A program made the position numbers and the translations under genes. Below, in pieces: positions 1-64,000 of a stretch of DNA of 64,000 nt; position 1 is the first letter of the stretch; every line of letters begins with the position of its first letter. The DNA is from Phyllosticta citribraziliensis (Eukaryota), in assembly GCF_038025025.1 (NCBI RefSeq), contig NW_027117344.1, positions 1-64,000 on the forward strand, read 5' to 3'. Under the pieces are notes generated by a model, which was given only the letters and a program-made list of their open reading frames with translations, ran no database searches and was not told the DNA's origin.

Positions 1-110
1 ACCCTAACCCTAACCCTAACCCTAACCCTAACCCTAACCCTAACCCTAACCCTAACCCTAACCCTAACCCTAACCCTAACCCTAACCCTAACCCTAACCC
101 TAACCCTAAC
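1..110. repeat. Telomeric repeat (CCCTAA)n, about 18 copies; chromosome end
   Basis: Perfect CCCTAA tandem array from base 1, the reverse complement of the TTAGGG fungal telomere. Confidence 0.99.
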
Positions 111-950
111 TATATAATACTACTATTTTACTATACTACTTATCTACTCTTATTACTAAAAATAATAACTTATAAAAATAATATTAAGACTCTAGTAGCC
201 TATTCTACTAGTATATATAAATACTACTAGGCTAATTAGAATTAGATTTTAGTAGTATATATATTAACTATCTTATAAAAGGTATCTTCTATAGTAAGAT
301 ATATACTTAATAGGCTATATATACTAACTACTACTACTATCTACTATAATAATAAAGGCTATAAGAGTAAGATTTATAGTAATCTCTCTCTATAATAATA
401 ATAATAATAATAATTTAAAGAAAGGAAGGTTTTTTTTTTTCTTTTTTTTTTTTTCTTACTTAAAAGAATTTCTTTATATATATAAAAATAAAAAAAATAT
501 TTTTATAATATAGTTTTAAAAATAGTACTAAGCTATTATAGTAAGTAGATATATAACTAGTAGTATAATAATATAATAGTAGAGGCTAAATACTTTAATT
601 TTAAGAATTTAAGTATTATAAATAAGTATAAATTAATTTACTATATAGAAAATACTAGGTATAATAATATAGTTAAAATATAAAGAGCTAGTTAAAAGAT
701 AGAATAAAGAGAGGCTTAAAGAAGTTTAAATTCTAGCTATTACTATACTAGATAGGATTTAGGCTACTATTTAATATTTTATTTATTAATCTCTTTTACT
801 AATTAAATTTTTCTAACTAACTACTTATAAACTACCTATATCTCTACTATTATATACTAGGTTAAGCTTAAATTTATAGTAGAATTTAGTAGTTATAAAG
901 ATTATCTATTTCCTTATCTAAGCCTAATAGGCTAGTTATTTATTTAGAGT
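111..950. repeat. AT-rich subtelomeric block with RIP-like signature (degenerate repeat relic)
   Basis: Very AT-rich, abundant TpA, CpA/TpG almost absent, no ORFs, abrupt return to normal GC near 950; contains (TAA)n at ~393-413 and a poly-T tract at ~429-456. Confidence 0.85.
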
Positions 951-3900
951 CGCTCCTAAGGGTTTTTAAAAGACCGGCCGTGTGCGCCTCTTTCTCTGCT
1001 AATTAATATTCGTGGTGTCTTCGTTAGTCTATCGCCTTATCCCGGGTCGATATACGTCCACTCGAGGTAGAGAAGGCGCCGAGTTGTGCGCTTGGTCCGC
1101 CAGCATACCATTGAGCTGTCATCATTACTCAGTCGTTACCTTGCTCGCGCGGCAAGACGTAGATAATGGAGTGCTCGGATTCATCAGCGAAGGTGTGGCA
1201 CAATTGTCGGTCTTGTCAGCCGCGACGGGGAGAAATTCTCGTCGTGTGAAGGAAGAGGACCGGTCGCAATCGTAGGTAAGGCCATTGTCTGCTGGATAAT
1301 CAGAAGGAAAGCCTCTCAGAGCTTGTGTTTTCAAATTACGTGTCGGAGACATCCAATGGCAATTCATCGTCTTGCGCGGACCGACTTTTGAACAGGAAGG
1401 CCTTTGCTCAATGGTACTTCGGCGGCGTACCGAAATGGAGATTCGAAGCTCTCATATCGACCGGAGACTGATTGGTCGTGCGCCTTGAGGAGCGAGAGGG
1501 AGAGAGAGCAGGCGATGATCGTGACGTGCTTGAGAAGCCGCTGGTTGAGAAGCGTTCGTTCGGCGTCGGCGTAGGCAGCCGCGAGGGAGAGTTGAATCGG
1601 CACAAAGTCCAGGACAATCCTCGCGAATGAAAGAGGTAAGACGGCGAGGGTGGTTCACGTAGATTGATGCTGGAGAAGAGGCAAAGATGGCGGAGGAGAA
1701 AGAGCAGAGGCATTCGCCCGATCGACCGGGCGACCTGACGGACAGCCGAGGGTGACACGGACCTGACCCTCTCCGGACCGGGCCGCACCCCCGCGCCTCC
1801 GCCCCGCCTGCTTGCCCTCCAGCTGCCGCGTTTCACCAACATCGCGCCGCCGTGTCGCGCCCGCGTCTTTCCCTTGGTTGCAAAAGCCCGTCACGACGAC
1901 AACGCCATCATCACTACTACGGTCCGGCCTCGCATCCTCGTCGCTGCTCTCAACACCCTGCGGTGGTCCGACACCAAGCGATGCGCGCAGCAGATCAAAT
2001 CGCTCCCCTGCATCTTGCTCCTCGCGACAGCCGCCGCCAAAGGCCACCGCCGCAAACTCTCCACTCTCGAAAACAAATCCAGCTGCATGCTTCGATGGCC
2101 CACCGTCGGCCCTTCAAGTGTTTTTTTGCACGGGTACCACCCCGCCGTGTCCTACGAGACCCCTCGCCCCCAAGTCGATGAACACTCCAATAGAACTCGT
2201 CCAATGCGGCAAAAGGCGCGACTGGACAATTTGAGGGCCAATTTGGCTCGGAAGCTGATCTTGGTCTCAATCAGTCAAGCGGCTCGTGACTGCGGCGATG
2301 GAAAGCTACCTGTCACGCTGTGGGATGTCCAGCGGCAGTGGGACAGGACAGTCGGCTCTGACGTGGCGAACATCTAGGTATTTTCGACTTGCATGCCCCC
2401 ACGTCTCTGTCTTCTGTTGCGAGCATTTTCATGTCGACCACCGAAGCGTCGCGGTGAGTTCAATGTGACGTTGCCGCAGGACTCCCAAAAGTACCACAGT
2501 TTGGTCATCGCTCTCCGCAGAAAAGTCGCTCGTCCGCACCTACTGCAGCATATGAGCTCAGTTGCTCGAAGCTCAAAGGTGGGCGGAGAATTGCGCCAAT
2601 ACACTCAACATGCGATCAGCCAAGCTCCCCGTGCTCAAAACAGCGACGGTCATCTGTACCTAGACTCGTCTCCATCCGAGCGCAAGCCAATCGCGGACGA
2701 ACGGTCAAGCCCGAGATCCCTATCCACAATGCAAGTCGTCCGCGCTTGTTGTTGCAACCCCACCCTCACGCCCCTCTGCACGACTGCTCCCAATGCTCAC
2801 GCAACCCGCAAACTCCAACACTTCCGGCACATCACCACTTGAGAGTTTTGTGCCATGCGGCGAAATTGGATCTGCAAACGCGTGGAATCAGCAGAGTTTT
2901 GGCGGCACTCTTCTCCTATTACCAACTTGTGTCGACATTACGTTGCAAGGAACAATTCTTGAAATTGATTTACTGCCAAGCTGTCCTTTGACGATGAGCG
3001 AGGTGGGTTTGAACATGCTTACATGTACAATACTTTGTTTGGTGGACCCTGAAGCTAACGTGAAAAGGCAGTTTTGGAACACATTGCCGAGCGCAAGACC
3101 CTGACATTTGTGGAACCTTTATACCGCAACTGGAGTCATCAGCACGCGATACCGTAAATTCGGCAGCCAACTCTAGAATCGTTTCGGTCTTATGCAACTG
3201 CGCTTGAAAGCACGTATCGTATCTTTAGTTTGACTTCAGCGAAAGTGTCTCGCAGCACACCAGCTTTCAACCCAATCGCCCAGTGACCCTCGTCATGATC
3301 AAGCTGACCATGCCGCACCAAGTTTCAGTAACTGGCCTCTTTCTTTATCTATCAGCGTCATTGAGTGGCAGCTCCTCAGCCCAGCCGCAGTGAGGAGCCA
3401 CCATCTTTGACAGGCATCGAGTAGCGTTGAAAACGGACCGCGAAGCAACGATGATAGACGTCACGCTAACCACAGCAGGCAACAGGCAGTATCCGTGCGA
3501 TCCGTACTTGATAGTTCTCGCAGGCCCGTGAACTTTACGGTGTGAGGTAAGTATGTGCTGTCAGGACCACTACTATCATGAGCTTACGCGTACGACTCAG
3601 GATATTGGTTAGTATGTTAAAATTTCAGCTGTGCGCCAGAGTCCTCGTCCTTGCATGCGATTCATAACTTACATCTTCGGTGTTTTCTGGAAGCAAAGTC
3701 TTACCCGCATGCAAGGCACCGGCTAAATTGTTGTGTGGATCTTCTCGAGAGAAGCGAGAGAACACGCATGAGTGGGGCGCCGCCGAGCTCGCAGACACCA
3801 TTGGACATCGAGCGTTCGATGCGATAGCATTGGTTCCGTATCGGTGTGCCGCCGGCGGAGAGCACTACATCCATATTTTCAATTCTTCCCCTGCAGCAAA

Positions 3901-8584: not shown

Positions 8585-9544
8585 ATGGCCATCAACAAAG
8601 TTACCATCATCGGCAGCGGTGCCATTGGCTGCTCTTGGGCCGCCCTCTTCCTCGCCAATGGTCTGCAAGTCACGGCATTCGACATCAACCCTCAAGCCGA
8701 GAACCTCTTGCGGTCCCTCGTTTCAGAGGCCCTTCCCACCCTGGAAAGAATGGGTCAGCTGAAGAGACAAGACGCCAAAGCTTCAGACGTCGTCTTCACC
8801 ACCGATCTCAAGGAGGCCTTGAAGGACACCGACTTTGTCCAAGAAAACGGACCGGAGAGGCTCGACTTCAAGCGCAACCTCTTCAACGACATCATTGCCA
8901 ACATCCGGCCAGACACCATAATCGCAACCTCATCTTCAGGCTTGACATGCACTTCAATCCAAGAGGGCGTCAAATCGCATCCCGAGAGATGCGTTGTTGG
9001 ACACCCCTTCAACCCGCCTCACATGATTCCGCTGGTCGAAGTTGTGGGCGGAAGCAAAACATCCGATGAAACCATTTCCAGGACCATGGCATTCTACGAG
9101 GGCTTGGGTAAAAAGGCCGTCCACGTCAAGAAGGAGGTCGTCGGTCACATTGCAAACAGACTACAGGCTGCCGTGGTCCGTGAATGTCTGCATCTCCTCT
9201 CGGAGGACGTCTGCGACATGTCCGACATTGATACCGCCATGTCCTATGGCCCTGGTCTGCGCTGGGGTGTCATGGGTCCAGGCTCTCTTCTCCACTTGGG
9301 TGGTGGTCCAGGCGGAATCCAGCATCTTGCCGACCATTTGCTTGGTCCATTGACGACCTGGTGGGCTCCCAAGGATCCCGTGGTGGACGACGAGTTGAAG
9401 AAGAAGTTTGTCGAGGGCACGCTGAACGAAATCAACGGCAGGACGTACGAGGCCATGGCCAAGCAGAGGGACGAGGAGTTGGTGGCTTTGTTGAATGTCA
9501 GAAGGGAGTGGGACAACTATGCGGAGAAGCAAAAGAGTGCTTGA
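8585..9544 (+). CDS. 3-hydroxyacyl-CoA dehydrogenase family protein (lambda-crystallin/L-carnitine dehydrogenase-like), 319 aa, intronless
   Basis: IIGSGAIGCSWA Rossmann motif, VQENGPERLDFK, ATSSSGL, GHPFNPPH, GHIANRLQAA, GPGLRWGVMGP; ATG at 8585 in AAAATGG context. Confidence 0.92.
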   Translation: MAINKVTIIGSGAIGCSWAALFLANGLQVTAFDINPQAENLLRSLVSEALPTLERMGQLKRQDAKASDVVFTTDLKEALKDTDFVQENGPERLDFKRNLFNDIIANIRPDTIIATSSSGLTCTSIQEGVKSHPERCVVGHPFNPPHMIPLVEVVGGSKTSDETISRTMAFYEGLGKKAVHVKKEVVGHIANRLQAAVVRECLHLLSEDVCDMSDIDTAMSYGPGLRWGVMGPGSLLHLGGGPGGIQHLADHLLGPLTTWWAPKDPVVDDELKKKFVEGTLNEINGRTYEAMAKQRDEELVALLNVRREWDNYAEKQKSA

Positions 9545-10284
9545 TTGAGTTAGCGTCGATATCCAATAATTTCATCCACTGTTCCTCCCTGCAAACCTCC
9601 ATCATGCCATGTATCCACGTGCTTGCGTCGCCTTTGCCTGCTTCGTTTCACCCCTTTCCGCGCAGAGCGTCCAAGTTGGCGTCAGCGCTCCCAGACGCTC
9701 CACGCCGTCGTTTCGGGCCGTGGAAAGGTGCGAGGCCGAGCGGCTGTGCCAGTTGTCGGTGTGCCTGACGGCGGCCGCGTAGCCGTGATAAGATCTTTCG
9801 GATCAAATCAGAGCGACGACGCTTTCGCGCTCTCTGCTCGTCTGTTCTAGAAACGCAATCGTCAGGCGAGGCGGAGATTTGGGCGGGATCGGTTCCTTCA
9901 GGCGATCACGCATGGACAGTGCCAGGCCGGATTCGCAGTGGCAAGGAGTATGTTCTGACTCGCAAGCCGAGGCTGGCGCCAAAAAGGGGAATTCAGGTGG
10001 TGTTGGTGACGACATGCGCCTGGTGTTGAAGACACGGACCGCGAAAATCTTCGAGGCGAGATCTTTTGATAAGATAACTCGGATTTGATCCGGCGCCCGC
10101 CACCACCACCGTCACCGTCGCATCGCGACCATAACATCATCTCGACGGCGAAGACCATTTTTCCTCTGAACCGTGCTGCTGCTGCTCTGGCCTTAATAGG
10201 AGACATGGCGTCCAACGCGTTTCTTCTGCCTGTTCCCATCTCGCACATCTCCAATCTCAACTCGTCCACCACTTTCCATCCACA

Positions 10285-11208
10285 ATGCTCCCCGAAAGAC
10301 GCCTCTACATTCTCGACACCGACCTGACCCGTTGGTCCTCTCGCCGTGGTCGCATCATCTCCACTCGCACCGATGGCTCCGACCCCAGAGTTGTCGTCGA
10401 CCACATCAAAGAGCTTCCCGATGGCATCGCCATTGACCGCGAGCACAACCACATGTACGTCACCATGATGGGTGCTTCCGGCTTCAAGGAAAACGACGGC
10501 TCGATCATCCGCTACAACCTCGATGGCTCCAAGCCCACCACCATTGTTCCTCCCGGCGCAACCTTCACGCCCAAGCAAGTCACCATCGCGCGCCAAAGCA
10601 AGAAGCTCTACTGGTCAGACCGCGAGGGCCTGCGCGTCATGCGCTCCAACCTCGACGGAAGCGATATTGAGGTCTTGGTACAAACGGGCAATACCGAGGA
10701 GGACCGCAAGGACCTGTCGCGGTGGTGCGTTGGCATCGCCGTCGACGAGGAAAATGGCTACTTCTACTGGACGCAAAAAGGTCCCAGCAAAGGCAAGGTT
10801 GGGCGCATCTACCGCGCCAGGATCGACGGCCTCAAGCAAGAATATCCCAGCTCGCGCAAGGATCGCGAGCTTCTCTTTGAATCTCTGCCCGAGCCTATCG
10901 ACCTCGAGCTGGACGTCAAGTCGCAGCTCCTCTACTGGACGGACCGCGGAGATCCCCCGACTGGAAACTCGCTGAACAGGGCGTACGTTGGAAAGACCCC
11001 GGCCACCTCTGGAGGTCGTTCCTCTGTGGGCGAGGTCCTGGCTGTCCGTCTTCACGAGACCATTGGCCTGGCCCTTGACCTCCAGAATGAAGCCGCCTAC
11101 GTCACCGATCTCGCCGGAGGCGTGTACAAGATTGGCATTGGCAAGGAAAACACCAAAGAAGTCTTGTTCGCCGAGCTGGGCGACACTACTGGCATCGCGC
11201 TCGTATAG
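10285..11208 (+). CDS. Six-bladed YWTD-type beta-propeller protein, 307 aa, intronless, no signal peptide
   Basis: Repeated blades PDGIAID..MYVT, LYWSDRE, VGIAVD..FYWTQ, PIDLELD..LYWTDRG, IGLALD..YVTD. Confidence 0.88.
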   Translation: MLPERRLYILDTDLTRWSSRRGRIISTRTDGSDPRVVVDHIKELPDGIAIDREHNHMYVTMMGASGFKENDGSIIRYNLDGSKPTTIVPPGATFTPKQVTIARQSKKLYWSDREGLRVMRSNLDGSDIEVLVQTGNTEEDRKDLSRWCVGIAVDEENGYFYWTQKGPSKGKVGRIYRARIDGLKQEYPSSRKDRELLFESLPEPIDLELDVKSQLLYWTDRGDPPTGNSLNRAYVGKTPATSGGRSSVGEVLAVRLHETIGLALDLQNEAAYVTDLAGGVYKIGIGKENTKEVLFAELGDTTGIALV

Positions 11209-40944: not shown

Positions 40945-42964
40945 CTATGCCGGCAACGACGTGTGTGAAATCTGCATCTCGTCCAGCATCTCCAACTTAT
41001 CCTCACTGGGCCCCTTCTCGTCAAGCGATACCTTCTTCTCCGCTGGCTTTCCTTCCGCTGGCTTTTCTTCCGGAGCGAGACGAATCTCCTTTCCTCCCGG
41101 AACGAGACGCATCTGGACTGGACTCTCTGGCTCTTCCTCACTGGCCTCCTTCTCGTCCAGCATGATTTGCTTTCCTGCGGCCTTTTCTCCCGGAGCAAGA
41201 TGCAGCTGGTCCGGACTCTCCGACTCGTCCTCGCGGGCATACTCCTGCTCGGCCGAAATCTTCTCTTCCGCGGCTTTGTCCTCTTCATCGAGATCGAGAC
41301 TGCTCATCGACTTGGGTTTTTCGACGTCATACGCTGACACATACGCGCTGTCGCGGCTGCGATTTGCCTGCGAGTGCGGGCGATCTTTTTCTGCGGAGGT
41401 AGTGTCGAGGAAGTTGTGTTTTTCGGTCGGACGCTCATCCTGTTCAGCGCCAGTGCTCTCCTGCCGCGGCTGCAGCTCTGGGCTGACAAATGACTGATCC
41501 ACAGCCTCGAACTCGTCGGCGGTGTTCAAGCTGTGAACGTCGCTGGTCGACAAGTCCTCCTGAATGGGAGCCATTATCGCCCTTGCCGCACGCTCGGCGT
41601 CGTCGTGGCGGCAGATGGGGCAAACAGAGACGATGCTTGGGGACCGGACATCCACGTTTGGAGTAGTCATCATGCTCGGTTCCATAGAGTATGTCAAGCC
41701 GTGAATCGCGCATTGGTATTCGTATTCAGGTCTCGGGACGATTCTGATGGGCGAGTAAGACTGCACTGGAAAAGGCTCTCGGCCGATGCGGACCGTGGCG
41801 GTAAATTTGAGCTTGTGGGTGTGCTGTAGGGTGTAGGTTACGAAGTCGGGGGTCGAGGACTCGGGGATAGTGATCATGATTTCCGTCGTCCGTTGCTGAA
41901 TGGGAAACAACACGCCCCGTTCGTGTACTATTTGCTTGTCTTGGATGCGTCGCTGTCCTTTAGTGAATTTGTACCCGGCTACATCTCTGTCTCATGTAAG
42001 TACTTGACGAATCGAGTCTAGGAGTGTCTTACGTGTGGGACTCCAGTACGATCTTGGCGTTTTCTAAATTTTGTACGGGCATCAAAGCCAGGTCGACGTC
42101 GCTTCTTTCTGATTCAAGTTCCAGACGAAAGGGATGCTTTCCGCCCGTGACGAACACAGGAGGGAGAGTGACTATGGCAGTCAGCAGAGAGAAACCAGTG
42201 TTTACGAATGACCGACCGGTTGGAACAATAACGAGCCTTGGCTCGAACCAATTACCAGGACAGATGCGCAGCAGCCTCTCTTTAAACGAGTTGATACCGA
42301 AACGCCAATCGGAGCACCGTCGTGAGACTGGGTGGAGTTTGAACGTCGCTTGGGGCGCCAGAAACGGGATGGGCTCTGACCCTTTCAAGCCCGTCTGAAG
42401 CTCGACGAAGTCCCGGTGTTCAGAACGACCTTGACCATCGGCACGCTCACTGATGACCTCGGCCCTGACAAAGTATTGGATAGATCCGATTGCATTATCC
42501 GCCCCATTGCCTTTTGTTACGCGGAAAGTAGGTGGGAGAGGTAGGGAACCATCAGCAAGGCGGTTGATCTTACGAGAAACACTGCAAAGGTCAGCGAGCG
42601 GCTTCTCGAGGAGAAGTGCAACACACTCTTCGGCACTCGTGCATTCTGGAAACTCCATCTGAAATGGATCGATGCAATTGTTGTTGACGACCAACTGCTT
42701 CTTATGGCGGAAGAGGTATGTATCACTCGTGGGGCTGATGTATCGGCCGCGAAATTTGAAGCCCCAAACCGGAGACTTGGTTTCGCATACTCCTGAAAGC
42801 TCAATTGTAGCAGAAGAAACGCGTGCGTTTGGTGGCTCCAAGACAATCTTGCCAGATACATTGTCACCGGGATGAAAGACTTGGTCTGTACCATTGAGGA
42901 TGTCGATCTTGACGGCGCGTAGACTCTGGGACGAGGTTGTCGAGGTCATTTTAGATGGTGCCAT
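40945..42964 (-). CDS. Arrestin-fold-like protein with acidic repeat tail, 2 exons
   Basis: VFHPGDNVSGKIVL, LPPTF, GSIQYFVRAEV (arrestin-N-like); TPDFVTYTLQHTHKLKF (arrestin-C-like); 46-nt intron 42032-41987 joins ORFs 42029-43111 and 40945-41913 in frame. Confidence 0.7.
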
Positions 42965-53877: not shown

Positions 53878-55016
53878 ATGAGCACCATCTTCGCAATAAA
53901 TTCATACACGCCACCCCAGGTCACGGAGCTTGTCTCCAGGGCCGGGGCCGTCAAGGGTCGCATGAATCCTCATCGCGTCTTTCTCTCATCAGTCAGCGCA
54001 GGATGTCTTCTCTCTTTCGCGAGTGCTTCTTCTCTCATGGCCAATACTTCTCCATGGGTAAGTTTGATTCATCGCATTCCGACTTCTTCGCTGACATTTT
54101 GAAGCTTCAAGAAAATGCACCTGGCGTTGCTCGCATTCTCGGCGGTTTCGTGTTTCCATACGGGTAAGAAAGTTTTGTCAATATTTTTGATTGAATCTAA
54201 CATTTGCAGATTAGTTTTGTGTCTTTTGACCGGAGCTGACCTTTGCACGAGCACGTTCATGGTAAGCAGCATATCCTTCCCTCGCCGGGAGCACTCATCG
54301 AATATTCCAGTTTACCACCGTGGCCACACTGCACCGCCGGCTGCCCGTAGTCCGAATGCTGCTCCATTGGTTCATTTGTTTCTGGGGCAATCTTGCCGGG
54401 GCTCTCTTCATGGTCGCCATCATCTTCGGATATGGCAACGTCTTCGGGACCGACCCGTACAAAGCAGAGGTCATTTCGAACGCCACCATGAGACAAGTAA
54501 CCCCGGACTGGCACATGATTTTCCTGCGCGCCATTGGCTGTGACTGGCTCGTGTGTCTGGGGTGCTTCTTTGGTATGCAAGGCCGCGACTTGGCCAGCAA
54601 GATTGTCGGCATTTGGTGTCCCATCTTTGGCTTCGCCAGCCTCGGACTGGACCATGTAGTAAGTGTCCCCGCAGCCCGTTGCTTCGGAGCTAACATTTCA
54701 GGTCGCAAACATGTTCTTCATTCCAATGGGCATCTGGGTCGGCCATCCAGATATCACCGTTGGACTGTACATTTGGAAAGGCATCATCCCGGCGCTGCTT
54801 GGAAATATCCTTGGCGGCGCGCTATTCTGCGGCGCGTACTACTGGTACACGTACTTGTACGATCAGGAAGAGATGTTGGTGGATGGAGTGCCGTATCAAG
54901 AGCACCGTGACGAGGAGTCGGGTCTTCACAGCAATTCGGACGAGGGAAAGGATACAGATGCGCAGAATGGCTCTATCTTGAGCGACATGCGGCGATTGAG
55001 GGGGACCAGGGCGTGA
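53878..55016 (+). CDS. Formate/nitrite transporter (FNT family), 5 exons
   Basis: FLSSVSAGCLLS, VFPYGLVLCLLTGADLCTS, FWGNLAGALF, RAIGCDWLVCLG, GLDHVVANMFFIP, LLGNILGG. Confidence 0.93.
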
Positions 55017-55179
55017 AACTTGGATCCATAGTATGGGAAGGAGCCGTTTGTAATGTAAAGTCCAGAATTTGTCGTTGGAGTTGTTCCGCTAGTCCCCGCA
55101 TGAGGTGAATGATGTCGTCAGGCAAAGTCGTTGCCGCCTCTCTGCCTCACGTTCGACGTCCTCTCCACAACAACCCAAC

Positions 55180-56067
55180 ATGTCTGTCAAGCGCGCGTAC
55201 TCCCCCGACGCATCCGAACAAGTCTTTCGCTCTTCCTCCATCACCGACCGTCAATCTATCTTCGTCGCACACTTTAGCCCCACGCTCTCTGCGCGCGCGC
55301 TCCAGGCCCATCCGGACTTCAAGTCGGCGACCCATCGCATCGCTGCCTGGCGCCGGCCCTCGACTCAGCGCTCCGTGATTGCTCAATCCCAGCGCATTCT
55401 TGACATTGGCCATGACGATGACGGCGAAAGCTACGCCGGGAAGAAGCTGGAAAAGCTGCTGGACGGGCTGAAAGTGGAAGGGGCCGTATGCGTGGCCAGG
55501 TGGTATGGCGGTATAATGCTAGGACCTGCACGCTTCGACCACATTGAAAACTGCGCTAGACAGGCCATTCACGCGTGGCAAGCTGCTGCGAGCAATTCCG
55601 AGCAGCAAAAGAGGCAAAAGGTGGCCAACACAAAGCTCAAGCAAGAGTTGGAGTGGATGCTGGCGGAGAGGGACCAGAGTATCCAGGTATTGAGGTCTTT
55701 GCTGGCGGAAAAGAGAAGGGCTGCTTCCAAGGATAATGGCACTTCGCAGCCGGCTGCGGCAACGTCTGGCAAGGCCATGGACTATTCCAAGATGCCGGTC
55801 GAGGCGCTCCGGAAGCTGGAAAAGGCTCGAGATGCCACCATTTCGTTCATCCTGAAAGAGATTGACAAAGTCGAGGCTGAGATTTTGGCAAAAGACTCCG
55901 CCGTTGAATCTGGGCCATCGTCCAAGGGCCACGAAAATGCCACAAAAGATGCACCTGCAGATGTCGATTCGACCTTTGATGATTCCCTGCCTGAGGATGC
56001 GTTCATTGAGGCAGCCAAGCTGGCAGAAGAATCGTCTAAAGCACAGGCCGACATTGAAGACTCGTGA
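55180..56067 (+). CDS. IMPACT/YigZ (UPF0029)-domain protein lacking an RWD domain, 295 aa
   Basis: ITDRQSIFVAH, ATHRIAAWR, DDDGESYAG, VARWYGGIMLGPARF; C-terminal coiled coil. Confidence 0.85.
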   Translation: MSVKRAYSPDASEQVFRSSSITDRQSIFVAHFSPTLSARALQAHPDFKSATHRIAAWRRPSTQRSVIAQSQRILDIGHDDDGESYAGKKLEKLLDGLKVEGAVCVARWYGGIMLGPARFDHIENCARQAIHAWQAAASNSEQQKRQKVANTKLKQELEWMLAERDQSIQVLRSLLAEKRRAASKDNGTSQPAAATSGKAMDYSKMPVEALRKLEKARDATISFILKEIDKVEAEILAKDSAVESGPSSKGHENATKDAPADVDSTFDDSLPEDAFIEAAKLAEESSKAQADIEDS

Positions 56068-56506
56068 GCAGGACTGCCTTTGGAAATGTCAAAGGTGAGC
56101 AAGAGATACGTGAGATGGTTGTGACACGTACAGAAGCCAGATTTCGGCCACAACGAGCGTCTTCCTGGACTGCGTGGCAGGGCAGCTTTGTTCTCCACGA
56201 GCCAGGGGCTCACCGATGCTGTCTCCTTGATTGCTGCAGACTTGGTCAATCTTTGGCTTGCTGACGCTCAGGAAAGGTTCCAATACTTTGTTGATTGTTG
56301 AAGACGGCCCAGGCATTAGAGTCGAATGTTGGAGAAGAGCCTTCAAAGGCTGCTCGCCGAGACTTTGTTCGCCGAGGCCTGGTTATCCCCAGTGCGGATG
56401 ATGGTTTTCTTCCACCCTGTCCGTCAACTCAACGAAACCAACTCCACTCTACCACGCAATTCCTCGCACCCCACTTCCAAAGACTCCCTTGATCTCCGAC
56501 TTGACC

Positions 56507-56971
56507 ATGTCGAACCCTGTGGCGGAGACCGCTGAGATGCCTGAGGTGAGCGCAGTTACGGAGATACCGCAGAAGTACTCTTCTAACCGCGAAAAGAACG
56601 AAGTCGTCCGAGAGCGCCACTCAGAGCCCCAGGCTACGGCTGGAGATCTCCACACCAGGATGGAGCGCATGTCGGCCGAGATCAACGATCTCCGCAAGAA
56701 GAACGACGACCTGACAAAGGATTACGAGAAGCTCTGCGACATGCACGACGGCCAGGTCGATACCAACGCCCAACTGGTGGAGCTGATCATCAGGATCGCT
56801 ACCGCAGCCGGCGTACTGCATGTCGACTCCGATGAAGATGAACCAAACGATACTCTCGTCGAAGACTTGAAGGCGACCGCCAATTATACATGCGATGCCA
56901 TCAACTCAATGCGCCTCGAGCTCGAAAGTTTCGATGCCGAGATGGCCGGCCCCGAGCCGCAGGACAACTGA
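56507..56971 (+). CDS. Orphan coiled-coil protein, tandem family member 1
   Basis: RMSAEINDLRKKNDDLTKDYEKL and QLVELIIRIATAAGV motifs shared with neighbours; probable in-frame intron 56546-56596. Confidence 0.65.
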   Translation: MSNPVAETAEMPEVSAVTEIPQKYSSNREKNEVVRERHSEPQATAGDLHTRMERMSAEINDLRKKNDDLTKDYEKLCDMHDGQVDTNAQLVELIIRIATAAGVLHVDSDEDEPNDTLVEDLKATANYTCDAINSMRLELESFDAEMAGPEPQDN

Positions 56972-57617
56972 GTCACAAAATTCGACGAATCGCACCTCAT
57001 AATGCTTTCGATTGCCTGAGGGTATTGTTGAAGATTCGAACACGACCGAGGTGTCTTCGATGGGACGAAAGCTGCTGGATCAGGCAAAGGAGACCAGAGG
57101 TTTACGAGAATTGGACGGCTTCGGGTCAAACAATTGGCCGCACGTTCTCGTGGCATCACCAGGGTTCCATCGGGCAAACGATGAGTGGCTCAATGTGCTC
57201 TTGATCAATCAAACTCTAGCTCTTCTATTTTCTTTGCGGTCTTTCCTTGAAGTGTCTCCTCGCGTTCTGACTGTAGTTCTTTTCCGTCGCCGCAGAACGA
57301 CAAGCATTCTGCCAGCAAACGCATATAATCTGACTTTTTTGACATTTGGTATTTCTCGCTCCAGGCTCGCTTAACCACATGCGCTGCGTCTCAAGCGAGC
57401 CCAGGCGTCGCCGTGGTGTCGTTTGCTGCTGTTGTTTGCCGCTGCCCGATTGGGCTTAGTGCAGGCGGTGCGCCTCCCTCCAGTTAGTCCTCTTTCCCTT
57501 CTGCTCTACGCAACCATTCCCACTCCACCTTCCTCTCTCGCCTGCCCACAATCCCTTCAAATCCTCTACGACAGTCAAGATGTCGGACCCTCAACACGAC
57601 GCGGCCCAGAGCAAGTC

Positions 57618-58199
57618 ATGGATGCTTGCGAAGAGCCAAAGGTGAGCGCATCCATCTTACCTCCGTTTGCCCTGGCTTCGCTGACCACTTCGCGTGAATA
57701 GATGCCTCAAACTTCTGCTGCCGAGCAACCAAAGACTGAAACTGAGGATGTCGAGGCTGAGCTCCGCAAGCTTCGCGCCGACAAGAGGGAGCAAGCGCGG
57801 AAGGTCGGCAAGCTTGAATCCACCGTCGAGGACAAGACCAAGGCGGCCACACTTCTTGCAGAGCACGTTAAACAAGATGTCGAGCGCGACATCTCGCAGC
57901 AGAAGAAGACGATGGAAAGCCTTGCTGCCGCCGGCGACGCTATCGCCAACCTCGCCAAGATCGAGATCGAGCCAATGAAGGCTGGAGCTTTTGTGATTCC
58001 GAAACCCAACTTCGACGAACCCAATTTCATGGGAATGCTCACAGACGCCATGAAAGAGAGAATTTCCGAGCTTGAGTCTCTAATCAAGCAACTGGCGAAA
58101 ACAGCTGGAGTCACGGTTGATGAGAACAAGAAAGAATGGGAATACATGGCAGAGCTCACCCAGCAGGCTGCGGACAACATTCTCCGTATGAAAGAGTAG
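57618..58199 (+). CDS. Orphan coiled-coil protein, tandem family member 2
   Basis: Exon MDACEEPK, intron 57642-57701, then ORF with VEAELRKLRADKREQARKVGKL and ELESLIKQLAKTAGV. Confidence 0.65.
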
Positions 58200-58699
58200 T
58201 TTGGCTACCTGGAGCAAATCTCATCTCTCTACTTCGGCTTTCTCACGAGTTCGTCGGCATCGATCAAGTCCGCTGAGGGCGCAAGAGGTCTCGGGACTAG
58301 AAGGAATGGCTGTCTCTGGAAAGTACATCATGGCGTGGGCCAAATGACTTGCTCAATATCCTCGAATCAAGCTGCTTCCATTAGGGCTACCCTTTGCTCC
58401 TTGTTGTCTCAAGTGTCAGATTACTCTAGGTCACCGCACCCCCAACAAGCACATTCAACCTGGCTCACTTTTCCCTGAAGCACTTGGAATCACCAAGACT
58501 GCCTGGAAAGGAGGCTTCGCTGGCCGTGTCGTTTGCTCCTGCTGATTTTCACTACTTCACGCTCCTGATTGGGACTTGAGCAGGTACTGCCCTCCTCCCC
58601 TTCTAGCCCTCTTTGTTCGACTTAATCTTCCTCACTCCACCACCACGTACAACAAATTGTCGCCCATTCTTAGTTTCTTCCTTCGCCACGAGATTTAAG

Positions 58700-59639
58700 A
58701 TGCCGGACACTCGCCAAAGCCCAAACGTGAGTGCACCAACGACCCTTTTTCCGCTCTAGCCCCGCTGACCACTTTCACTTTGCGTATGAATAGATCGCTG
58801 AAGCGACCGCTGCCAAACCTCCTAAGGCCTTCTTCAAACGCATGGCAGCCGAGATACTCAAGCTTCGCGCTACAAACAAACAACAGTCGGAGAGGATCGT
58901 TAAGCTTCAAGCCTTAATTGATCTGCAGGACAAGAAACTTGACTTGTATGACTTGACCCGGGCGGAGCTTCCTACCGACCTCGATCTAGACCAGGCTTGC
59001 GAACGTGTCGGGGGAGCTGTAGCCATTTTGGGGGATATTATCAAGATGGTACGTGCGTCTGCTCCCTATCATTGCTCCGCTCGCACTTGTTCCTGACATG
59101 TGGCCGAGGCGCAGACTTTAGCAAACCCTCTCCGCACACGGAGTGATCCCGAAATCGACCTCGAAGTCGAACAAATGTTGAAGACTTTTATTACTGAGAC
59201 TTCGAAGAACATGTTCAAGTCTTCCGTCAAGCGGCTGGCCAGAGCTACGAGAGTCACGAGCGAGGAGGAGCATAAGGGCTTGGTTGAGCTCATTACCGCG
59301 GCTGGAGACCATATGGAACATCTTTTGATCCACGATGGGCAGACTCGTACCATGATCGCACAAATCGGCAAAGAAATTACCGTTCGTCACCAGAGGCTTG
59401 CTGCTCAACAAAAGGAGCTCGCTGCTGAGCTAAAGGAGCTTTCCGCCCACCAAGAGCAGACTGCCCCCAATCCACAGCAGCTTGCCGCCTACCAAGAGCA
59501 GACTGCCCCCTATCTACAGCAGCTTGCCGCCCAGGAAGAGGAGCCGGTCGCTAATCACAACGAGCACGTCGCTTCCGGGAAGACGCCGGCTGGTAACAAG
59601 GAGTCCTCTGAACCACGCAAGAGGGCTCGACACTCTTGA
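58700..59639 (+). CDS. Orphan coiled-coil protein, tandem family member 3, 3 exons, ~268 aa
   Basis: Introns 58727-58793 and 59049-59114 join the ORFs in frame; RMAAEILKLRATNKQQSERIVKL; GLVELITAAG; C-terminal PRKRAR NLS-like. Confidence 0.65.
59445..59540 (+). repeat. 42-bp coding tandem repeat (AHQEQTAPNPQQLA / AYQEQTAPYLQQLA / AQEE)
   Basis: Two near-identical 42-nt units plus a partial third. Confidence 0.85.
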
Positions 59640-60441
59640 TCTCGACTTCATCTCCACGCCAAGCTCAGCCTTCCAAGTCGTCTGCTTCTCTGTGATGCCA
59701 TGGCCGTTTCAGTCATCTTCCCGTAAACAGATGGTTGCCGCGAAACTGTCTTCCGCCAAGTCAGTGGAGGGTACCCAAAGGTAGCGTCACTACAATTTTC
59801 TTGCACTTTTGCACTTGAAAAGCATCCATCGAGTCCGCTGGAGGGTGAGGGTTTTCAGTTTGAACAGAAGGAGCTTATTTCACTGAGGAGTACGTGTGTG
59901 TTGGCGGTGCGCGGTTCACGTTGCTATTGATAAAAGTTGCATTCGCTGGAGTCGGAGTGCAGGAAGAGAACGGGTCTTGTCAGCTCAACCAAACCTCAAC
60001 GATGAAGATTCAGTGTCTTTCCCATTTACTTTCGCTCGTTTATGCTTGACTTCTTCGTCACGCGTCATTTGTTCTGCCCAGAGACAAATGACTCCCAAAT
60101 CCAAGGCGTTGGCTCGCGTCTTGCTTCAGATCGGGCTTACTGCACCCTCCAACAGAGCCGATCATCGTAATACTTGGAGTTTCATTCTGTTGGCATTACG
60201 TTGTTGGTTGTCCGAATTCTGCGCGATTGCGACGACTACACGCAAGACACGGCACATGATTGGCCAAAGCGTCAACAACAACCTTTGCGATAGTAACTTT
60301 CGCGAAGCTCGTCGCAATTTCCCCCATGATCCCACTTACCTACATATTGCGACAGACTATGCCTCCTTCGCTCCGTTGCGAATTCTCCAGCGTCCTCGCA
60401 GCAAAAGGCAAAGCCGTCAACGCGACCTCACCGAAGCGAAG

Positions 60442-61013
60442 ATGGGCCAGACATCAGAAAGACTGAGCGTAAGTACATCCGTCGACGCGTGTCGCATGAC
60501 TTCAAGACTCCCGCTGACCTCGACATCCAGGACGACTCCGCTCGATCCGTCGTAAGTCCAGTCCGCGACCCCAAGCAACGGCACTCTCGACAGCCAGCGG
60601 CACCCGCAACCAACACCATCGCTAACCTCTTCGACCCAAAGGAAGCCGCCGCAGCCCTGACATGGTGGCGCATCTACGGGTCGCAAGTGCCCAAAGCCAG
60701 CGCCAGCGCCGACGGCCGCGCCAAAGCCGCCTTCGCCTTTGCGATGCAGCAACAGGAGCGGATGCGCGCCGCGCTGGCCCGCATGCAGAGCGAGCTCTAC
60801 GAGCTGGTCCAGCATGCCGTCGCGGTGCACGACTCTCTGCCCGGCACGCAGTTTGAGAGCGAGATTGGCCGGAATGTTGCGGAAAGGGATGGGCAGTTGA
60901 AGGCGCTGAACACGACCATGTGGCTCTGTTTTGCGTTTTTGATGTATTTGAGGAAAGGCGGCGGTGTGCCGGTGGATGAGGAGGTCGAGGTGGATGTTTG
61001 GAGTGATGTGTAG
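60442..61013 (+). CDS. Orphan helical/coiled-coil protein, 2 exons
   Basis: AAGATG start, 27-nt exon, intron 60469-60530 (GTAAGT..CTGAC..CAG) in frame with ORF 60489-61013. Confidence 0.6.
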
Positions 61014-61287
61014 CCGGGCTGTTCTCTGGCAGAATTTGGCTCGCTTTTCTTTTGTCATGGCGATGATACTCCTAATGCCTTATATGACAGTCCAATTGAA
61101 TGCTCATTTATGTTTTCGTTGTGGGTTCTCTCGACGACGTCAATGACTGCTGTTGTTGCATGCTCCCGATTGGGCGTAGCGCGCGAACACCCTCTTGCCT
61201 TCCTCTTCTGCACTCAAAGAACCTCGACTCTTCCACTGCTTGAACAAGCCTCCGCCTCGTCAATTTGTCTTCGCGCGACTCAACACA

Positions 61288-61800
61288 ATGGCACCGGCTC
61301 AAAGTGCGCCGCCGCGAGCGCGAAAACGAAAGGCGACTGCTCACACGGCGAGTATCTCACCTTGCGTCGTTGGTCCTTCTGGCCCTGCTGACCTCAAGGT
61401 CTAGACAAAGCCCAAGCGCCGTAGCATCAAAGCGAGTTCAGCGAAAGACCACCCGTCGATCGATCGCATGGTATGAAGTTTCCAGGGCAAACGCAAGTCA
61501 ACCTCGGAGCTAATCGCAGTTTCAATCCAGAGAACCACCAGAGCCAAGCTCTCAGAGAGGAAGCAAACTATTGCCCAAGCGAAGGACGCCCAGAAAGAAC
61601 TATCTGACATGCTCATCCAAACTGAAGCCGATGTCGCGCTCCTCAAGGAAATATCACATAATCTCTCGCCGTGTTCTCCAGTCTCGAGGTCTTACATACG
61701 TTGTAAGGAACAGGTCGCTAGGTTGAAAGACCATTTCGATACCATCACTGCCCACATCATCGACTTCGAGGGCTGGATTGCGGACTATGAGTCTCAGTGA
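61288..61800 (+). CDS. Orphan basic/coiled-coil protein, 3 exons, ~131 aa, GC-AG first intron
   Basis: MAPAQSAPPRARKRK; introns 61348-61404 (GCGAGT..CTGAC..TAG) and 61471-61530 give a continuous frame to the stop at 61800. Confidence 0.55.
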
Positions 61801-62102
61801 CTGCCGACTTTGCCCTTTTCCAATAATCGTTTTGCATGAGACTTCAATTCTACTAGGCACACGGATGAGCTTGTCGAATTGACGTGATGGCTGAGAGGGC
61901 ATGCGCTCAAGTGCATTGCTACATCAGCATCCAACATATACCCAAGGCTGCATTTTTCGGAGGAATATTGGGACAAACGTGTTGACATGAGGCGAAAGGG
62001 TTTGCTGGAGCGGAAAGATGTATGAGGAGACTGGCTACATGTCAGAAAGAAGCGACCCTCTAGAAATCTCTACTTGCTCTCAGACCAGATGCTCTACATG
62101 CA

Positions 62103-64000
62103 TTACTGCTTCAGAAAAACTGGCATCGAGTCCATGTGACAATCAACGACAATCGTCTGGCCCCCGTCGAATCCAACCGAGTCTTGACCGTTGAACGTCT
62201 TCCACTGGAAGCCGAGGGGCAAATAAACTGATCTGCTCTTGACACCCGCATGCAGCACCGGCGCCACAAGCAACTTGCTGCCAAACATGTACTGATCCTC
62301 AATCTCCCACGCCGTCTCATCCTCGGGAAAGTCGTAGAACAGGGGCCTGATGATGGGAGTGCCCTTTTCGTGCGCCGCCTTCATCAAATGTCTCGTATAG
62401 TCGCGCAGACTTTCCCGAATCTGGAGATACTTCTTGCAAATGGCGTACACCTCTTCGCCGTACGACCACACCTCGTTCGGAGCCCCGGAAAGCATCCATG
62501 CGCCACCCGTGTCTCCCTGCCGAGGCTGCTTGGGCTCTCTGTCACCGTGCATGCGCATGACGGGACAAAACGTCGCCCACTGGAACCAGCGCACAAACAA
62601 CTCGCGAAACGCCTCGTCGGTCGTGTCGCCGCCGTGGAAGCCGCCAATGTCAGTCGACCACCACGCGATGCCGGCCATGCCCATGTTGAGGCCGGCGGCC
62701 AGCTGGCAGCGGAAGCTCTCCCAGCTGCACGCAATGTCGCCGCTCCAGACGAGGGCGCCGTACTTTTGGCTGCCGGCCCACGCGCAGCGCGCCAGATTGA
62801 CGATGTCCGTCTGCCCGCTCGCACGCATGCCGTCGTGGAAGGCGCGGGCGTAGTCGCGCGGGTAAATGTTGCCGATCTGCAGGACGGGGCCTTTCCAGTA
62901 GCGCCAGATGTCGAAGTCGTAGATGGTGTACTGCGGCTCGGCTTCGTCCAGCCAGAAGATCTTTATGCCCTTGTCCCAGTAGTTTTGCTTGACCTTGTCC
63001 CACAAATAGGCTCCGGCAGCCGGATTCGTAAAGTCGACGTATGGAGGCTGGCCATTGATTTCGTAGGCGGTGCGGAGGCCCTTGTCGGCGCGGATGATGT
63101 AGCCGCGCTCCAGCATCTCGGGGTAGTTCTCGCACGTCTTGTCGACGGTCGGCCAGATGGACACCATGAGCTCGACGTCGAGCTGCTTCAGCTCCTCGAC
63201 CATGGCGGCCGGGTCGGGCCAGTACGCCGGGTCAAACTTCCACTCGCCCTGTTTGGCCCAGTGGAAGAAGTCGACAACAATGACGTCGAGCGGCAGGTCA
63301 CGCCGGCGATGCTCGCGCGCGACCTCGAGCAGCTCCTCTTGCGATTGGTACCGCAGCTTGCATTGCCAAAACCCGAGGCCGTACTCGGGCATCATGGGCG
63401 GCGTGCCCGTAGCAGCGGCGTAGGCCTCGACGATTTCGGCCGGCGAGTCGCCCGCGACGATCCAGTAGTCCAGCGCCTTGGTGCTGAGGGCTTCAAACGA
63501 CATGATATTCTTTCCCAGCACGGCGCGCCCAAGGGACGGGTTGTTCCACAGCAGCCCATAGCCCAGGCTTGATACTGCAAAGGGCACGCTGGCTTGCGAG
63601 TTGCGCTGAGCCAACTCCAGGTCGAGCCCCTTCAGGTCCAGGAACGGCTGCTGGTACTGGCCCATGCCGTAGATCCTCTCATTGCGGTCTTGCGATTCGA
63701 GCCGGTACGTCAGGTGCCAGTCGGTCATGCCCAGGTGCGGCTTGAATTCCCGCGCCTCGACACTGAGGGCGCTGCATTTGGGATCCTGGAGGTCTTTGCG
63801 GTTGCGCTGGTACTCTTCGAGCAGGGTCTTGCCGGCAGCATTGGTGATGACTAGCTTGCCCCGCGAGCCGATGGATGCTTGAATCTTGTCGTTCAAAATG
63901 TGTGCTGACGTCTCGTTGATGCTGATGGCGGGAGCGGCTGCAATGGTCGGGACCTGGTCGAGAGCCCAGTCTTCGGTGGGCATTTGAGCCTGCTTTGTGG
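62103..64000 (-). CDS. Glycoside hydrolase family 31 (alpha-xylosidase/alpha-glucosidase-like), 5' end outside the window
   Basis: YGMGQYQ, GFWQCKLRY, DVIVVDFFHW, nucleophile WLDEAEP, acid/base WSGD, DIGGFHGG, PVMRMHG. Confidence 0.93.
   Translation of the reverse strand, partial: TKQAQMPTEDWALDQVPTIAAAPAISINETSAHILNDKIQASIGSRGKLVITNAAGKTLLEEYQRNRKDLQDPKCSALSVEAREFKPHLGMTDWHLTYRLESQDRNERIYGMGQYQQPFLDLKGLDLELAQRNSQASVPFAVSSLGYGLLWNNPSLGRAVLGKNIMSFEALSTKALDYWIVAGDSPAEIVEAYAAATGTPPMMPEYGLGFWQCKLRYQSQEELLEVAREHRRRDLPLDVIVVDFFHWAKQGEWKFDPAYWPDPAAMVEELKQLDVELMVSIWPTVDKTCENYPEMLERGYIIRADKGLRTAYEINGQPPYVDFTNPAAGAYLWDKVKQNYWDKGIKIFWLDEAEPQYTIYDFDIWRYWKGPVLQIGNIYPRDYARAFHDGMRASGQTDIVNLARCAWAGSQKYGALVWSGDIACSWESFRCQLAAGLNMGMAGIAWWSTDIGGFHGGDTTDEAFRELFVRWFQWATFCPVMRMHGDREPKQPRQGDTGGAWMLSGAPNEVWSYGEEVYAICKKYLQIRESLRDYTRHLMKAAHEKGTPIIRPLFYDFPEDETAWEIEDQYMFGSKLLVAPVLHAGVKSRSVYLPLGFQWKTFNGQDSVGFDGGQTIVVDCHMDSMPVFLKQ

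Follow-up and report, generated by a model that had tools for sequence, protein, structure and literature searches.

We propose that three co-oriented genes of Phyllosticta citribraziliensis, here called g1, g2 and g3, form a tandem array belonging to a previously undescribed gene family that is restricted to Phyllosticta. The genes g2 and g3 are certainly paralogues, g1 is very probably a distant member of the same family, and both g2 and g3 have diverged between sister species to an extent that neutral drift is unlikely to explain. The window (the whole stretch of DNA analysed, 64,000 nucleotides) is the first 64 kb of a contig in a 31.35-Mb, 22-contig genome and has telomere repeats at its start. 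Records under the name Phyllosticta citribraziliensis match its proteins exactly; one of them may be the window's own source, in which case it is not independent. According to PMC9073689 the species lives in citrus as an endophyte, and its closest relative is P. citrichinaensis, a name spelled citrichinensis at NCBI and hereafter.

A preliminary description of this DNA, made from the letters alone, had proposed three co-oriented coiled-coil genes with two common motifs, similar start contexts and an early intron donor. The three genes were confirmed as follows:

56507..56971, plus strand: g1, 137 aa (exons 56507-56545 and 56597-56971), identical to record P0003; intron joint in runs X1 and X3.
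57618..58199, plus strand: g2, 173 aa (exons 57618-57641 and 57702-58199), identical to record P0001; intron joint in X1.
58700..59639, plus strand: g3, 268 aa (exons 58700-58726, 58794-59048 and 59115-59639); second intron joint in X1.

The GT..AG joints were found in public contigs at 56546-56596 (X1, X3), 57642-57701 (X1) and 59049-59114 (X1). X1 and X3 are presumed to be RNA and served for splice joints and bridges only; contig depth varies by gene, with no X3 cover over g2, and is not usable for ranking expression. As the spliced contig joints establish, g1, g2, g3 and a neighbouring orphan, g4 (see below), are transcribed, spliced genes. No joint for the first intron of g3 was found among the X1 and X3 contigs; the g3 acceptor at 59114 is backed by a joint and gives a protein 2 codons shorter than the public model P0006. 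The first intron of each of the three genes is in phase 0 and starts with GTGAG(C/T)GCA, the donor that had been noticed. Motif 1 in g1-g3 and motif 2 in g1 and g2 also lie where they had been placed, whereas the g3 segment first taken for motif 2 (GLVELITAAGD) aligns with the next helix and the true counterpart is MFKSSVKRLARATRV. The acidic g1 (net -21) is without the middle ~60 residues of g2, and g3 consists of a g2-like core followed by a C-terminal extension that contains 2.5 copies of a 42-bp repeat (59437-59540).

The proposed likeness of start contexts fails at g2, where, once the intron is removed, ATGTCGGACCCT at 57580 does not share the g2 frame and the ATG that does lies at 57618:

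57580..57978, plus strand: ancestral g2 start ATGTCGGACCCT, now out of frame; after splicing it opens an overlapping 112-aa open reading frame (ORF).

By position, the ATG at 57580 is homologous to the start of g1; exon 1 counted from it is 62 nt here, whereas the sister-species protein has 21 codons in frame. In the P. citrichinensis and P. paracitricarpa proteins the corresponding start keeps the frame, and the RNA-type X1 contig has no difference or gap around 57580, so the out-of-frame start is a real lineage-specific change. The g2 stop likewise comes ~8 codons ahead of the orthologues' stop; homology continues through the TAG, and the tail has drifted.

Do g1, g2 and g3 share more than the general bias of coiled coils? 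For g2 and g3 the answer is clear. Their proteins align with a Smith-Waterman score of 101, which was reached by 0/2000 shuffles of each kind (full, heptad-preserving or local), and match at E=0.0014 genome-wide. Their first introns are homologous (0/72 intron-like strings were as good), as are the sequences on either side of the genes:

57329..57579, plus strand: g2 promoter and 5' untranslated region (UTR), with CTGCTG..CCCGATTGGG (reverse CCAAT box) and a pyrimidine-rich leader.
58512..58699, plus strand: g3 promoter/5'UTR module, homologous to that of g2 (score 75, 0/4986 natural windows).
58257..58306 and 59822-59873, plus strand: 3' motif common to g2 and g3 (score 40, 0/1000 natural windows; repeat D16).

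Since the homology covers the promoter, the first intron, the protein and the 3' motif alike, a whole unit of ~1.1 kb was duplicated. This bears out the earlier suggestion of local duplication, and genome searches, which score best candidates only, found no further copies of the family.

For g1 the case is built differently. Pairwise protein tests were not significant (36 against g2, equalled in 504/2000 shuffles, and 42 against g3, in 129/2000), and hhalign of g1 against the family was weak (2.5% and 9.2% probability). A profile built from five g2/g3 sequences with g1 excluded gives g1 18.8 bits, a score reached by 0/1015 natural ORF pieces and 1/1000 heptad shuffles, and the DNA upstream of g1 aligns with that of g2 right up to the ATG (score 51, reached by 0/4986 natural windows in one direction and 1/4986 in the other):

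56365..56506, plus strand: g1 upstream/5'UTR module, homologous to that of g2, with a degenerate ATTGG (reverse CCAAT) core.

The upstream DNA of g1 and g3 gave no significant match, and the predicted helices of g1 fit the layout of g2 if ~60 middle residues are absent. Homology beyond coiled-coil bias thus stands for g2-g3 on pairwise evidence, and very probably for g1, by profile and upstream DNA and not by pairwise comparison.

The preliminary description had called the family lineage-specific and suggested a profile search. In hmmsearch against 1.84 billion (1.84e9) representative proteins there were 8 matches at E<=1e-3, six of which carried a Phyllosticta name; the others were an unnamed Logan protein and a coil from Paenibacillus (P0009, E=5e-4), the latter dropped as a coiled-coil false positive; no credible relative outside Phyllosticta emerged. 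Word-based protein searches returned 2, 3 and 1 proteins, and a scan of JGI metagenomes with g1 gave 113 pattern matches with 0 confirmed. No relevant rows for five protein ids were found in the supplements of Buijs et al. 2022, of which two files list selected orthogroups only and further rows could bear on the family's range, and our literature search found no paper describing the g1-g3 family. The locus is also syntenic across Phyllosticta, as judged by accession order, and lies downstream of a conserved neighbour:

55180..56067, plus strand: IMPACT/UPF0029-family gene, 295 aa, with a C-terminal helical extension (PF01205, E=1.4e-18); upstream flank of the array.

In P. citrichinensis the accessions are consecutive (KAK8167088 for IMPACT, ...087 for g2 and ...086 for g3), and g2 of P. 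citricarpa and P. paracitricarpa falls in the same accession series as other window genes. The window's IMPACT protein is 93-95.5% identical to the P. citrichinensis records. Its C-terminal helices showed no significant similarity to g1-g3, and an origin of the family from them was rejected.

The array proteins differ sharply in rate, and the label "fast-evolving" fits two of them. Identity to P. citrichinensis is 124/137 (90.5%) for the slow g1, 89/173 (51%) for g2 and 96/219 (44%) for g3, as against 93.2-98.5% for eight control genes (of 20 ORFs queried, 12 occurred in the collection, 8 of them together with a P. citrichinensis member, and only genes above 90% are visible to this control). 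The g2 upstream DNA is ~93% conserved in the sister species (distance ~0.07); the P. citrichinensis g2 model has an over-extended N-terminus that translates the promoter region, where 45/52 pseudo-codons match the window. In an unconstrained simulation a distance d of ~0.3-0.35 was needed for g2, and of ~0.4 for g3, to reach the observed divergence, and under neutral simulation at d<=0.2 the lowest of 300 runs was 56% identity, above both observed values. Taking a genome-wide neutral distance of ~0.1-0.2, inferred from 95-98% protein identity, g2 and g3 have evolved ~2-3 times faster than the plausible neutral rate.

This change is uneven, both between branches and along the protein. A relative-rate test on g2 found 6 versus 26 lineage-unique residues (P=0.0005), with the excess on the P. 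citrichinensis branch, and identity falls from 37/45 at the N-terminus to 11/45 in aa 76-120. The g2 reading frame is nevertheless open in three lineages at identities down to 30%: the window's g2 is 41% identical to the P. paracitricarpa protein, the sister-species g2 30%. On protein data alone, positive selection, ancient alleles and paralogue replacement would look the same.

Haplotypes add a further layer. Run X4, which carries another organism label and is unspliced, holds a haplotype ~90-95% identical along the locus, with 44 differences per 606 nt in g3 (93%), together with a deeper, more distant haplotype. One X4 haplotype has one unit fewer of the g3 42-bp repeat (joint 59469-59512). 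Most of g3 is missing from a minor X4 contig, which jumps over 58958-59743. Two P. citribraziliensis annotations agree fully in their g2 and g3 records, and the citricarpa/paracitricarpa records have one and the same g2 core; these samples are small and may be clonal.

The proteins are small coiled coils of no recognised family, in keeping with the preliminary description. AlphaFold2 (AF2) models are all-helical and match in layout, with helices at 28-65, 69-83 and 98-129 in g1, and in g2 a long helix at 19-94, a hypervariable loop, and helices at 117-143 and 148-172. No hydrophobic signal or membrane segment was apparent by inspection. Pfam scans gave only sub-threshold coiled-coil matches, with no family over the cut-off and no HET, NLR (NACHT/NB-ARC), PNP, patatin, CHAT, nuclease or kinase domain. 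A PDB sequence search had a best E of 0.13; the ESM Atlas gave nothing credible (top feature score 0.90 for g1, to unnamed bacterial clusters, and 0.75 for g2; structure rows at a template-modelling score, TM, <0.5); and Foldseek had no match at E<=0.001. The fold search peaked at Z 7.0 among tied generic coils of cytoskeletal and chromosomal proteins, covering residues 15-99 only, and hardly probed the C-terminal part of g2. A g1+g2 complex prediction made without alignments scored 0.08, which speaks neither for nor against binding.

Although the count of three genes stands, two further co-oriented orphans, g4 and g5, had been overlooked, the second of them behind the same promoter module:

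60442..61013, plus strand: g4, 139-aa orphan (exons 60442-60468, 60531-60551 and 60642-61013); both introns joint-confirmed in X1.
61147..61287, plus strand: g5 promoter module, homologous to those of g2 and g3 (g2-g5 score 48, 0/4986 natural windows).
61288..61800, plus strand: g5, predicted three-exon orphan of 131 aa with a basic N-terminus; GC-AG first intron predicted.

Neither is a protein family member by pairwise and profile tests, and no further copies of either were found in the genome. The family profile gave g4 2.2 bits and its upstream DNA was not significant; an ATTGG core upstream of g4 (60257-60273) aligns with the array promoter core in the multiple alignment, with a pairwise score that is not significant. 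The g5 protein has no similarity to g1-g3, its first intron is weakly g2-like (1/72), and its introns have no joint among the contigs, an X1 contig over its 5' part being unspliced. The distant X4 haplotype aligns up to 61236, through the g5 promoter, and then carries 855 unlike letters across the g5 ORF (61236-62082); since it keeps the promoter but not the ORF, promoters here outlast ORFs. From the other side, the minus-strand glycoside hydrolase gene and the g5 ORF are joined in one X3 contig (61452-62200), possibly an antisense overlap. All 8/8 modelled introns of g1-g5 are in phase 0 (5 joint-confirmed) and the first exons are very short (24-60 nt), possibly a sign that g4 and g5 go back to one ancestral unit with the others.

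The promoter pattern has five matches genome-wide, three of which precede g2, g3 and g5; the two outside the array look like chance, one lying within coding sequence and the other having no similar gene downstream. Rfam over 54900-62300 gave a single chance match (E=0.45), so that no catalogued non-coding RNA accounts for the conserved upstream block.

Transcripts also appear to connect the array with its upstream neighbour:

56095..56276, plus strand: GT..AG intron 28 nt past the IMPACT stop; joint in X1.

This intron, whose donor AAAG/GTGAGC is the same as that of g2's intron, links the IMPACT 3' region to g1's leader, so that RNA runs from the IMPACT 3' end toward g1; its splicing makes an 8-codon ORF from the ATG at 56086. 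An X1 contig spans 56273-58386 with both introns removed and an X3 contig spans 55635-57199. These IMPACT-g1 and g1-g2 bridges, which are assembled contigs and not single molecules, suggest read-through or overlapping UTRs. Because upstream ATGs are present in g1's long leader, g1 is probably translated from its own shorter transcript.

The surroundings are ordinary core genes, and the other flank of the array is the minus-strand glycoside hydrolase gene, which we take to belong to family 31. The preliminary description had also set the array in a genome showing repeat-induced point mutation (RIP), for which no role in the array is supported. The RIP composite index of the array is -0.79, equal to the rest of the window (individual units -0.46 to -1.1), and the array has no RIP signature, so RIP was rejected as the driver of its divergence. 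By the test used (TpA excess with CpA/TpG depletion) the index is positive in 1/63 1-kb windows, at the telomere. Window positions 1-1500 hold 18 copies of the telomere repeat ACCCTA followed by ~1.4 kb of AT-rich, RIP-like DNA, the only such part, and genic DNA starts within ~4 kb of the contig end. Elsewhere in the window, two neighbouring ORFs of 319 and 307 aa (8585-11208) correspond to one 643-668-aa protein in several Phyllosticta records, possibly a spliced fusion or a read-through model. An acidic 310-aa ORF on the minus strand (40945-41877) is possibly another orphan: it contains internal repeats, and neither a Pfam match nor an exact record was found for it.

What, then, might these proteins do? 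The explanation we lean towards, with a little better than even confidence, is that they are small intracellular binding proteins in which a variable loop lies between a constant coil that oligomerises and a pair of C-terminal helices, and that episodic diversifying selection has acted on g2 and g3. Tandem duplication of the ~1.1-kb unit (promoter, gene and 3' region) downstream of the IMPACT-family gene would have founded the array, and its members would be soluble, non-enzymatic coiled-coil proteins confined to Phyllosticta. The N-terminal coiled coil (motif 1) may oligomerise, the C-terminal helix-turn-helix (motif 2, ending A-x-T-A-G-V) would be a second constant element, and the variable middle (g2 aa 76-120, absent from g1) would determine the binding partner. 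On this model g1 retains an ancestral binding job under constraint and g2 and g3 have been driven towards altered partner specificity, with g2 in this lineage probably turned down by its out-of-frame upstream ATG.

Several points weigh against this explanation. The membership of g1 comes down to one promoter match and an 18.8-bit score, and a selected bacterial coil scored nearly the same (17 bits). The structural models are of moderate confidence, with a predicted local distance difference test score (pLDDT) of 69 and a predicted TM score (pTM) of 0.29. The controls are biased, since only genes clustering at 90% are comparable (8/12 clusters; 8/20 ORFs absent); the neutral distance of ~0.1-0.2 is an estimate drawn from protein identity, and the promoter may itself be constrained. 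The rate contrast comes from protein identities, and what were compared as g2/g3 "orthologues" may in fact be ancient alleles, or paralogues that took the place of the originals. The out-of-frame start and early stop of g2 are also compatible with decay, and the support as a whole consists of sequence comparison, splice joints and predicted models.

Birth-and-death decay has, in our judgement, a real but minor chance of being the better account. Here selection would have relaxed on duplicates that the fungus can do without, and hidden paralogy or gene conversion would make the divergence look larger than it is; g2 in this lineage would be an incipient pseudogene, and g5 a young ORF or decayed copy behind a duplicated promoter. 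The displaced start, shortened end and drifted tail of g2 fit such an account, as do gene models that differ between assemblies. It sits badly with a g2 frame that has stayed open in three lineages, with divergence beyond that of the neutral simulation, and with change that is clustered in the middle of g2 next to a conserved g1.

A non-enzymatic allorecognition locus of het or greenbeard type, with g2-g3 as ancient balanced haplotypes, is unlikely, and the conflict-system idea of the preliminary description has only indirect support, in the rapid, asymmetric change with conserved flanks. After hyphal fusion, unlike alleles would form mismatched coiled-coil oligomers that lead to a fusion block or cell death. 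Diverged coding DNA between near-identical flanks recalls the narrow footprint described for A. fumigatus het loci, where one hetB allele is a short protein without predicted domain (PMC11138114). The X4 g3 at 93% (nucleotide) beside the annotated P. citrichinensis g3 at 44% (protein) amounts to two very different haplotypes over a similar depth, and the window's g2 is nearer to the P. paracitricarpa protein than the sister-species g2 is. The array proteins lack any HET, NACHT, NB-ARC, PNP or patatin domain, however, and the nearest HET match on the contig, among 29 matches listed, is at 366,946, ~305 kb off. The g2 and g3 records, few and possibly clonal, are identical within species with no allele classes seen, and a burst in one lineage explains the contrast equally well.

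A bolder extension, which we consider also unlikely, would make the locus an enzyme-free self/non-self or conflict cassette, in which a CCAAT-box promoter unit is re-used for interchangeable small "specificity" proteins (g2, g3 and the unrelated g5 ORF), with deep haplotypes across Phyllosticta and a read-through link to IMPACT. IMPACT has a role in Gcn2 control.

It is very unlikely that these are structural coiled-coil proteins evolving so fast that homology beyond the genus is no longer detectable. Candidate classes include synaptonemal-complex central elements and kinetochore, spindle-pole and septal-pore proteins. Small all-helical proteins with a long coiled coil would suit this role and the fold search did return generic cytoskeletal and chromosomal coils, but every match was tied at Z<=7.0, and the low sister identity, the end-length changes of g2 and the repeat extension of g3 are extreme for the class. 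A poison-antidote meiotic driver cluster (Spok, Spk-1 or wtf mode) is less likely still, since for all its tandem orphan duplicates, rapid asymmetric evolution, position ~57 kb from a telomere and reportedly heterothallic host (PMC9073689), the array has no Spok-like nuclease or kinase domain (PMC6660238), no dispersed copies and no repeat or RIP context, and occupies a fixed syntenic site among core genes.

Set beside known systems, the array is not a Spok. As described by Vogan et al. 2019 (PMC6660238), Spok proteins are ~700 aa long, carry PD-(D/E)XK nuclease and kinase domains and move between loci; they share with the array an N-terminal coiled coil and a history of duplication and diversification, whereas the array proteins have 137-268 aa, are all-helical, have no enzyme domain and keep to a fixed locus. 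In their transcription the genes may resemble the polycistronic or read-through units that Gordon et al. 2015 (PMC4503453) report as enriched in tandem duplicates in fungi, given the bridging contigs, the spliced joint and the promoter module of each gene, although those units come from Agaricomycetes and here the evidence is assembled contigs alone. In the account of Auxier et al. 2024 (PMC11138114), A. fumigatus hetA-E are fungal het loci under ancient balancing selection. The likeness lies in strongly diverged coding DNA with flanks conserved within a few hundred bases; the array differs in having no death or NLR-type domain and in a divergence seen between species only. The missing domain need not bar it from working like a het locus, as domainless het alleles exist. 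Should the deep haplotypes turn out to be balanced and to cause incompatibility, the array would represent a new, domain-free class of fungal allorecognition gene.

The closest likeness in kind is to the clusters of lineage-specific genes (LSGs) in Neurospora, which according to Wang et al. 2023 (PMC10684091) include the homologous trio NCU00529-00531 and have HET-domain gene neighbours. Like them, the array consists of genus-restricted, domainless genes with paralogues from local duplication near a chromosome end; unlike them, it lies amid core genes with no HET-domain gene nearby and no RIP or repeats, and the profile search found no sequence relation to the Neurospora LSGs among the representatives. 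Within 5 kb, a slow copy (90%) stands next to two whose identity is down to 44-51% although their promoters have hardly changed, and in a fifth unit a kept promoter precedes an unrelated ORF, which makes the array a good case for studying how orphan genes of fungi slip out of reach of homology searches without RIP. The array is an undescribed family of a known kind, a taxonomically restricted tandem gene family.

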